From: Rotaria sordida
Taxonomy: Eukaryota
NCBI GenBank assembly: GCA_905250005.1
Contig: CAJNOH010000088.1
Location: forward strand, 1-62,152
Direction of reading: 5' to 3'
Length of the DNA: 62,152 nt
The notes beneath the pieces are model-generated. The model was not told the origin of the DNA. It did no database searches and was given only the letters and a program-made list of their open reading frames with translations. The position numbers were made by a program, and so were the translations under genes. This document shows positions 29,178-32,100 of this stretch, in pieces (the first letter of the stretch is position 1; each line of letters starts with the position of its first letter).

Positions 29178-32100
29178 ATGAGTAAAACAACAGCTACGAG
29201 TGATAATAAAAGTGGTTCTGGTCCCCTTTATCGAATTCCTCCTCATTATTATATTCATGTTTTGGATCAAAATACAAATGTTACACGACTTGAAATTGGT
29301 CCAAAAACATTTATTAAACAAGATAATGAAACAGTCACTATTGGACCAGAAAAGATGATTACAGTACCGTACGTGAATTTTTTTATATATAAAAAAAAAA
29401 AGAAACAACTAAATAAAGGATATAATGATTCGAATATTTTAGACCACGCCATTATTGTGTTATTGAGTCACCTGTAGTACGTAATGAAGCTGGAGAAGTT
29501 CAATTTGATAAAAATGGACAGGCAAAACTTATTCATGCTGATTTGGATATTCGTCTTGCTCAACCTGATCAAGCACCATTTCCTCTTTATCCCGGTGAAA
29601 TTCTTCGTCAGGTATAAAATTAAATTTTTTTTTCAATTAACAAAATAAAACTAATTTGATCGAATTCTTTTTGTTTTATTCAGCCTGTGACTCCATTAAA
29701 AGTTGTTCCTGCTAATTCAGCATTACGTCTAAAAGCTGTACTCGATTTTGAAGATGAAACAACACATGAACAACGTCGTGCTGGTGATGAATGGTTATTT
29801 GAAGGTCCAGCTACTTATATTCCTCGTAAAGAAGTTAGTGTTGAGGAACAAATTCGAGCTACAGTTATTGGTTCTAATCAAGCTATAAGACTTTGTGCAA
29901 AAAAAGAAATTATTGATCGTGCAGGTCAACATCGTGTTACTGGTGAAGAATGGTTAGTTAAAAAAACTGGTGCTTATTTACCTCTTGCATATGTAAGTTC
30001 AAATTTTATTCGCATATTTTAATTAAAAATTTTGTAATTTTTTAGGAAACTGTTGTTTCTGTAGAAAATGCTTATGTATTAACCGATAAAAAAGCTCTTC
30101 ATCTTCGTGCATTAAGAACTTTTACAGATAATTTTGATAAACAACGTATGAATGGTGAAGAATGGCTTGTAACTCTTGCTGACACTGAAACACATATTCT
30201 TAGTGTATATGAAGAATTAGTTAATGTTGTCAATGTAATAACATTGACTTCTCGTCAATATTGTGTTATACTTGATCCAGTTGCTGATGGAAAACCACAA
30301 TTAGGAAAAAAAGTATGTCACATATAATGGTTTTTTTATATAGGGAAAATTTAATTATTGAAATTTTTTTCTCTAGAAACTTGTCGTGGGTGAAAAATCA
30401 TTCTTTCTTCAACCTGGTGAAAAACTTGAAAATGGAATTCAAGATGTTTTTATATTAGGTGAAGATGAAGGTGTTATACTTAAATGTATTGAAGCATTTA
30501 AAGATGAACAAGCTAAGGTTAATCGAAATCCCGGTGATAGATGGATGATTCGTGGCCCAACGTAAGAGATTTATTTTTGAATAAAATTTTAAATTATTAA
30601 TATAAATTTTAGTGAATATATTCCCCCAACACAAGTTGAAGTTGTTACACGTCAAAAAGCAATTCCATTAGATGAAAATGAAGGTATATATGTTCGTGAT
30701 ATAAAAACTGGTTGTGTACGAGCAGTCATTGGTGAAACATATATGTTAACACAAGATGAAGAATTATGGCAAAAAGAATTACCTAAACAAGTTGAGGAAC
30801 TATTATCACGTGATGCATTAAGTGAACGAAATGTTCTAACACGCAATCAAACATCAGATAAATCTAAATCTCAACAACAAACAACAACGTCAAATACAAA
30901 TCTTGCTAAACGTGATAAATCAAAATTAATTACATATCGTGTTCCACATAATGCTTGTGTACAAATCTATGATTATAAAGCTAAAAACGCACGTATTATA
31001 TTTGGTCCTGAACTTGTTTTGCTTGGACCAGATGAACATTTTACATTACTTTCATTAAGTGGTAGTGTACCGAAAAAACCTAATCAAATTCAAACACTTT
31101 GTTTACTTCTTGGACCAGATTTTTTTACTGATGTTATTGTTATTGAAACAGCTGATCATGCTCGTCTTTCATTACAACTTTCATATAATTGGCATTTTCA
31201 AATATCCGATACGACTGATGAAAAAGAAGCAGCAAAACTTTTTTCAGTGCCAGATTTTGTTGGTGATGCAGCTAAAGCTATAGCTTCACGTATTCGTGGT
31301 GCTGTTGCTGGTACACAATTTGATGATTTTCATAAAAATTCAGCTCAAATTATTCGTGCATCAGTATTTGGTCTTGACGCTAATCAACATATAAGAGATA
31401 AATTTATTTTTCCACAAAATAATCTTGTTATTACATCCATTGATATACAAAGTGTTGAACCAGTTGATCAACGAACACGAGATGCACTTCAAAAGAGTGT
31501 TCAATTAGCTATTGAAGTAAGACGAACCCTATTGATTTATTTTTATAATACATATGAATGAATTATTTAGATTACAACAAATTCACAAGAAGCAGCTGCT
31601 AAACATGAAGCTTCACGTCGAGAACAAGAAGCTAAAGGATTATTAGAACGACAACGTATTAAAGATGAAGCTAATGCTGAAGAAGTTCGAAGACAACTTC
31701 TTGACTTACAAGCTTTATCAGCTGCTGTTGAATCAACAGGTCAAGCTAAAGCTGAAGCACAAAGCCGTGCTGAATCAGCTCGAATTGAAGGAGAAGCAGC
31801 TGTTGAACAAGGTAATGAATAATGATATTGTTTACAAAAAAAATTTAATTGTTTCTTTCTTTTATTTAATTAGCTGGTCTCAAAGCTAAAGCTACACAAA
31901 TTGAAGCTGAAGCTGAATTATCACGTTTACAATTAGCACGTGAAGCTGAAATAAAATTTTTACGTGAACAAAATGAATTAGAAATATCAAAGAAAAGTGA
32001 AATGTCAAGAATTGAAACTGAAAAATTTAAATTACAAGTTGAATCTATTGGTGCATCGACAATTCAATCAATTGCTACTTCAGGTCCAGATACACAAGTT

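Follow-up and report, generated by a model that had tools for sequence, protein, structure and literature searches.

Concerted evolution of a 163-nt, intron-bearing tract shared by convergent MVP paralogs of bdelloid rotifers

How can two old paralogs share an almost identical intron? The question is raised by a pair of genes for the major vault protein (MVP) in a 62,152-nt stretch of the Rotaria sordida genome (assembly GCA_905250005.1, contig CAJNOH010000088.1, positions 1 to 62,152 of the forward strand; hereafter "the window"). MVP-A (29178..32262, forward strand; 8 exons, 884 amino acids) and MVP-B (33784..37085, reverse strand; 14 exons, 839 amino acids) are convergent, with 1.5 kb between their stop codons; their protein identity is 66.7% and their coding-nucleotide identity 72.6%. 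An initial annotation of the window had singled out a short stretch of near identity between them, including an entire intron, and read it as the signature of a recent, nonreciprocal exchange between inverted copies. We find that the stretch is very probably the product of recurrent short-tract, noncrossover interlocus (ectopic) gene conversion between the adjacent paralogs. The same tract has been homogenized separately in at least five bdelloid lineages, and the pattern is one of concerted evolution and not of a single event.

The tract in the window

The A copy of the tract occupies 31431..31593 on the forward strand and spans 86 nt at the end of exon 6, intron 6 in full (31517..31570; 54 nt, phase 0), and 23 nt at the start of exon 7, the encoded peptide ending in ITTNSQEA. 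The B copy lies at 34574..34736 on the reverse strand and includes the end of exon 9, intron 9 (34597..34650, reverse strand; 54 nt), which is the homologue of MVP-A intron 6, and the start of exon 10. The coordinates first proposed for the A copy were correct, and those for the B copy (34576..34737) were off by 2 nt, A 31432-31593 pairing with B 34735-34574. In a base-by-base comparison, the A copy and the reverse complement of the B copy agree at 159 of 163 positions (97.5%), in line with the first estimate of about 97%. One of the four mismatches is a synonymous exonic change (A 31462, CCA/CCG) and the others are intronic (31527, 31528, and 31556), leaving the two introns identical at 51 of 54 positions (94%), exactly the three intron differences originally counted. 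The nearest mismatches beyond the tract are at A 31430 and A 31594, and the reported drop in identity outside it was reproduced, with 78.6% in the left flank (31216-31430) and 67.9% in the right coding flank (31594-31811). Less than 6% of the gene is kept identical in this manner, while protein identity in the remainder has fallen to 67%.

Such similarity is not expected from the general resemblance of the two genes. The binomial probability of at least 159 matches among 163 sites is 1.4e-17 at p=0.726, and that of at least 51 matches among the 54 intron sites is 1.7e-7 at p=0.64. MVP-A has 7 introns and MVP-B has 13, and 3 of these share both position and phase; the small number of shared positions indicates extensive intron gain or loss after the duplication. 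The shared-position introns outside the tract, A1/B2 and A7/B12, are 63 and 64% identical, respectively, which is the random level seen in shuffled intron controls (mean 0.59, maximum 0.68); across the three shared-position introns, the control means are 0.59-0.63 and no control is above 0.72. The contrast with the 94% of the tract intron bears out the claim that intron identity goes beyond what constraint on the protein could explain. Synonymous-codon identity in sliding windows, a check proposed with the initial annotation, peaks at 0.97 within the tract and is 0.5-0.6 downstream and 0.8-0.9 for ~500 nt upstream; the tract has the highest intron and synonymous identity in the gene, so that this check does not refute the initial reading. 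Third positions in the tract are nearly all A/T, and inspection by eye gave no obvious signal of GC-biased conversion.

Homogenization in related genomes

We fetched the contigs encoding the best matches and numbered them as loci with the prefix L. The linked arrangement Sad1_UNC – MVP-A → ← MVP-B – TPT was found in five further assemblies (L001, L002, L007, L009/L010, and L011), with flanks differing from the window by 5-37%. Loci carrying one paralog each, MVP-A only in L003 and L004-6 and a B-type gene only in L014/L015, were left out of the within-locus comparison, and L012/L013/L016 (GC 42%), which have a single, more distant MVP without the tract intron, served for an outgroup glance only. 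The lineages were compared through nucleotide alignments restricted to one exon region, and sliding analysis over the whole gene covered only the window, L007, and L009, as the spliced, codon-usage-scored dynamic-programming (DP) gene finder, trained on the window, performed poorly on the GC-richer L001, L002, and L003 and on the B copy of L011. L003, which shares its sample of origin with L001 and L002, has a GC content of 49.5%, against 29-38% in the other bdelloid-like loci; in it, TPT directly follows MVP-A and MVP-B is missing.

In the coding flanks of the tract, distance matrices for the six genomes with linked pairs group the sequences by paralog throughout, A–B differences being 21-39%. 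In a count over five genomes, fixed paralog differences number 43 in the flanks, next to 8 variable sites that are genome-concordant, that is, with A equal to B within each genome. For the tract, the corresponding counts are 0 and 9 (Fisher p = 1.6e-6). The 43 fixed differences, together with the shared B-specific introns and the conserved synteny, show that MVP was duplicated before the compared lineages diverged and that the pairs did not arise by independent recent duplications. Within genomes, the tract exons of A and B differ by 0.9% in the window, 1.8% in L007, 4.6% in L009, 3.7% in L002, 8.3% in L001, and 11% in L011. The comparison with related genomes that the initial annotation had called for thus gives a twofold answer: the location of the tract is common to the lineages while its sequence is lineage-specific.

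The intron makes this clearest. Within five genomes, the A and B versions of the tract intron are 94, 90, 95, 93, and 79% identical, and in all five the A intron is closest to its B partner in that genome; between genomes, identity is 41-79%, with shuffled sequences reaching up to 72%. Just four differences in 163 nt would, for the window considered by itself, fit one recent conversion event, and a single event could also have been ancient and the tract conserved ever since. An ancient event, however, would have left the introns alike between genomes, which they are not, and a recent one in the window lineage leaves L007, L009, L002, and L001 unexplained. Since five genomes each have their own intron sequence common to A and B, and lineage-specific synonymous variants are likewise common to the two copies, we consider a single event very unlikely. 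The original reading therefore stands as far as conversion between inverted copies is concerned but not as one recent exchange, at least five lineages having been homogenized independently.

Sequence constraint, with the exons held by selection on protein or nucleotides and the intron by a functional element such as a mirtron, a small RNA, or a splicing regulator, seems less probable still. It draws on the identity of the 36 encoded residues in A, B, and all orthologues and on the weak statistics of the exons alone. The tract intron, however, is unconserved between genomes, with identities that overlap the range of shuffled sequence, and it has been lost outright from the B copy of L011, the A copy of L004, and L014. 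Synonymous sites of the tract also vary freely between lineages: between distant orthologues, up to 21% of the tract sites differ while the gene models obtained all encode the same 36 residues, which implies that these sites are free to change. L011 provides a natural control, as its B copy is without the tract intron and its exonic tract differs between A and B by 11%, all of it apparently synonymous; the exon identity in the other genomes is thus not simply due to constraint.

We also considered a mirtron or other structured intronic RNA as a candidate in its own right. Six versions of the tract intron fold with minimum free energies of -2.3 to -6.2 kcal/mol (z-scores from +0.9 to -2.8) into differing structures, and a scan of the whole window against Rfam matched no family. 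With no consistent hairpin, no Rfam match, and no conservation, the candidate was rejected.

The least credible explanation is an assembly artefact, in which reads of one paralog were built into the consensus of the other over a short similar stretch: assemblers can be confused by short near-identical inverted repeats, but the four A/B differences were retained and the pattern recurs, with different sequences, in five assemblies that were made independently, from different samples and with different assemblers.

The boundaries of the tract, too, fall at the same places in all lineages. According to mismatch maps of the six genomes, the left end falls in the codon at 31430..31432 (forward strand), which is ATT (Ile) in A and CTT (Leu) in B, giving LVIT vs LVLT, and this Ile/Leu difference is kept in every genome with a linked MVP pair. 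The right end is at 31593/31594 in all six genomes, to the nucleotide, and coincides with the start of the divergence between A-type (AAAKHE...) and B-type residues (AQAKHLASRTE; ...EAQAKHLASRTE). Intron 10 of MVP-B (34509..34564, reverse strand), the extra downstream intron that the initial annotation had mentioned and that we recovered at B 34564-34509, lies 10 nt past the right end of the tract, is specific to MVP-B, and serves, with these paralog-specific residues, as a marker of the right boundary in all lineages. The tract is thus exactly the stretch of A/B protein identity, bordered by paralog-specific residues conserved across lineages.

Some observations weigh against recurrent conversion or limit what can be said of it. 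The exon-only evidence is marginal, with permutation p-values of 0.035, 0.010, and 0.038 for the run of identical synonymous codons when 0, 1, and 2 mismatches are allowed; the test is modest because AT-biased codon usage alone makes 72% of synonymous codons identical, and the case therefore rests on the intron and the cross-species data. The exonic tract of L009 is ambiguous when taken alone, its B copy being nearer to L007 than to the A copy of L009, and only the L009 intron is decisive. The independence of the lineages is uncertain, as L001 and L002 stem from a single sample and the window, L007, and L009 are only ~9% apart; the introns are nonetheless strongly different between genomes. 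With both copies being homogenized in every genome, the direction of transfer and its nonreciprocity cannot be read from the window, and the one indirect sign of polarity is the intron loss in L007 described below.

Inferred mechanism, possible further exchange, and the surrounding sequence

Recurrent conversion could start from a break or gap in either MVP copy, which would be repaired by homologous recombination, probably by synthesis-dependent strand annealing, with the paralog 3 kb away as the template. Pairing may be seeded in the two exon stretches of 86 and 23 nt, which are identical between A and B in protein and invariant in every rotifer MVP aligned; such invariance means that long runs of nucleotide identity always remain there. 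The 54-nt intron between the seeds would then be copied as a passenger. The ends of the tract could be set by heteroduplex stopping at mismatches and at the heterology of the B-only intron, by selection against conversions that replace paralog-specific residues, or by a combination of the two. As each round of conversion would restore identity, the patch would stay competent for the next one, a feedback that would account for the homogenization of the same 163 nt in lineage after lineage.

From the alignment to the solved MVP, the tract encodes what we take to be the junction of the shoulder and the cap helix. It is conceivable, though improbable, that homogenization of the patch is favored and not merely tolerated, maintaining a matched contact segment if MVP-A and MVP-B co-assemble in mixed vault shells. 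If true, this would be a device of "co-evolution by copying" persisting across bdelloid lineages. A more remote variant is that convergent read-through RNA allows the two copies of the tract to pair as a 163-bp duplex, coupling the regulation of the stress-induced paralogs.

Recurrent conversion may have left traces elsewhere in the pair. A B-specific intron, present in the window (B 35032-34966) and in the B copies of L001, L002, and L011, is absent from those of L007 and L009, where the regions of the former junction are at L007:10330-10421 and L009:13370-13458 (both reverse strand, compared with 34966-35032, reverse strand, in the window). In L007, the B copy is identical to the A copy across the former junction. 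This points to an A-to-B conversion in which the intron-less paralog was the donor and the intron was lost. A second zone of low A–B divergence was found at 30911..31030 on the forward strand (B 35323-35204), where the large exon common to both genes is most conserved. The A–B distance there is 7.8% in the window and 1.1% in L007, the latter being below the distances between orthologues, and the zone may be a second, less regular conversion patch, although it contains no intron that would separate conversion from constraint. The raised synonymous identity upstream of the tract (30900-31430) suggests older or occasional longer tracts.

A further possible case involves unlinked genes. The A copy of L004 and the B-type gene of L014 both are without the tract intron and have in common several otherwise unique synonymous variants as well as the Leu codon (L004:10836-11105 and L014:10740-11160). 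This would suggest past exchange, provided that the two contigs come from one species; the sharing could reflect conversion in a pair that later became separated, or the reciprocal loss of copies from duplicated loci. The L004-6 and L014/15 loci are common in metagenomes and have GC contents of 34-35%.

No crossover product, combining an A-type 5' part with a B-type 3' part, was found in any of the genomes compared, the left and right flanks of a given gene always belonging to one paralog type. A crossover would turn the 3-kb spacer around and exchange the tails of the two genes; no such event has thus been fixed.

The identification of the pair as convergent MVP paralogs, also proposed initially, is supported by the gene models and by homology. 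The open reading frame (ORF) at 30743-31519 matches the major vault protein in the Protein Data Bank (PDB) with a phmmer E of 4e-100, query residues 1-259 being aligned with MVP residues 407-664. The domains PF01505, PF17794-6, and PF11978 were found on the MVP homologues and the neighboring exons, so that vault repeats, shoulder, and cap helix are all represented. The exons of MVP-A, modeled with the DP gene finder, are at 29178-29368, 29443-29611, 29684-29992, 30046-30312, 30377-30561, 30613-31516, 31571-31811, and 31874-32262 on the forward strand. The model is collinear with a full-length MVP of 892 amino acids, encoded on a 2.9-kb contig, with zero gaps at exon junctions; the alignment spans the ...QLAIE|ITTNSQ... 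junction and thereby supports the splicing of 31517-31570 as an intron. The exon pattern of MVP-B was recovered again in the DP models of L007 and L009. Orthologues of MVP-A vary in intron number too, that of L004, for instance, having 4 introns only. The closest protein matches to the MVP exons are metagenomic exon ORFs (82-91% identical), one of which, a partial match at 90% identity, carries the label Adineta steineri, and Brachionus sequences are more distant. In the bdelloid Adineta vaga, several MVP genes have been reported to be induced after radiation and rehydration/desiccation (PMC10809525).

The window has a GC content of 28.8% and introns of ~55 nt; together with the protein matches, these features identify its source as a bdelloid rotifer. 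Within the AT-rich spacer between MVP-A and MVP-B there is a GC island of ~300 nt (33100-33400; 49-56% GC) with CACACC-rich repeats, for which Rfam gave no match and which shows no conservation in L007 or L011. Away from the MVP genes, two foldback-like elements (4935-5544 and 25082-25685) have ~220-nt arms that are 88-90% complementary and spaced by ~170 nt; they contain no convincing ORF and may be repeats of the miniature inverted-repeat transposable element (MITE) or foldback type. A tandem repeat with a period of ~122 nt and 89% identity between copies (61853-62152) reaches the end of the window. A dispersed repeat family (16546-16949, 53714-54319, 26203-26421, 26939-27072, and 3244-3350), with copies in both orientations and 66-79% identical, is probably an old transposable element.

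Comparison with known systems

Conversion of this type has parallels of different degrees. Primate L/M opsin genes are a familiar example in which conversion homogenizes introns while selection preserves a few functional sites; these genes are direct tandem repeats, unlike the MVP pair. Y-chromosome palindromes undergo intrachromosomal conversion between inverted repeats, but their arms are near-identical over their whole length. In the window, self-BLAST and a repeat finder delimit the inverted similarity to approximately 29227-32165 vs 37001-33830, and besides the 163-nt patch, which forms the inner end of this inverted repeat (I1), the arms are 66-87% identical and hence not of the palindrome type; 2980 nt separate the arms.

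Close precedents are found in mammals. BMP8A/B, DDX19A/B, and TUBG1/2 show long-lasting segmental concerted evolution for which intron similarity was used as the diagnostic (Carson & Scherer 2009, PMC2720389). As in these pairs, the MVP duplication is older than the species compared, specific segments are homogenized in several lineages so that similarity is higher within than between species, and intron similarity serves as the criterion that excludes purifying selection. Unlike them, the MVP patch is only 163 nt long with one 54-nt intron, lies in adjacent convergent paralogs of a bdelloid, and has boundaries that are exact to the nucleotide in six genomes.

In Caenorhabditis, the hsp16 inverted repeat, hsp70-7/-8, col-12/col-13, and act-1/act-3 have undergone conversion, including adjacent inverted paralogs with compact introns (reviewed in PMC3966223). 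The adjacent inverted orientation, the crossing of ~50-nt introns, the tracts of a few hundred bp, and the sparing of divergently selected regions are all features similar to those of the MVP pair; the Caenorhabditis cases, however, mostly homogenize whole ORFs or modules, and the MVP tract occupies the small fraction of the gene given above.

For bdelloids themselves, the accepted cause of patchy identity is conversion between collinear homologues (PMC3464624; see also PMC5916493 and PMC7749112), and the MVP exchange takes place in the same organisms and presumably with the same recombinational repair machinery. The cases described there concern allelic or collinear homologues or near-identical copies, whereas the MVP exchange is ectopic, between old paralogs inverted on the same chromosome. 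A full-text literature search found no paper combining bdelloids, gene conversion, and MVP.

The host is of relevance, as bdelloid genomes have been argued to rely strongly on recombinational repair and gene conversion in their evolution. In practical terms, phylogenies and paralog assignments of bdelloid MVPs would be misled if the tract were included, and the tract, being the size of an amplicon, is a potential reporter of ectopic conversion after desiccation or irradiation. The phenomenon is already documented in mammals and Caenorhabditis, and the MVP pair adds no new mechanism to it; it is an unusually well-delimited case, a replicated and sharply bounded example of a self-sustaining conversion patch of only 163 nt, with a compact intron hitchhiking along.

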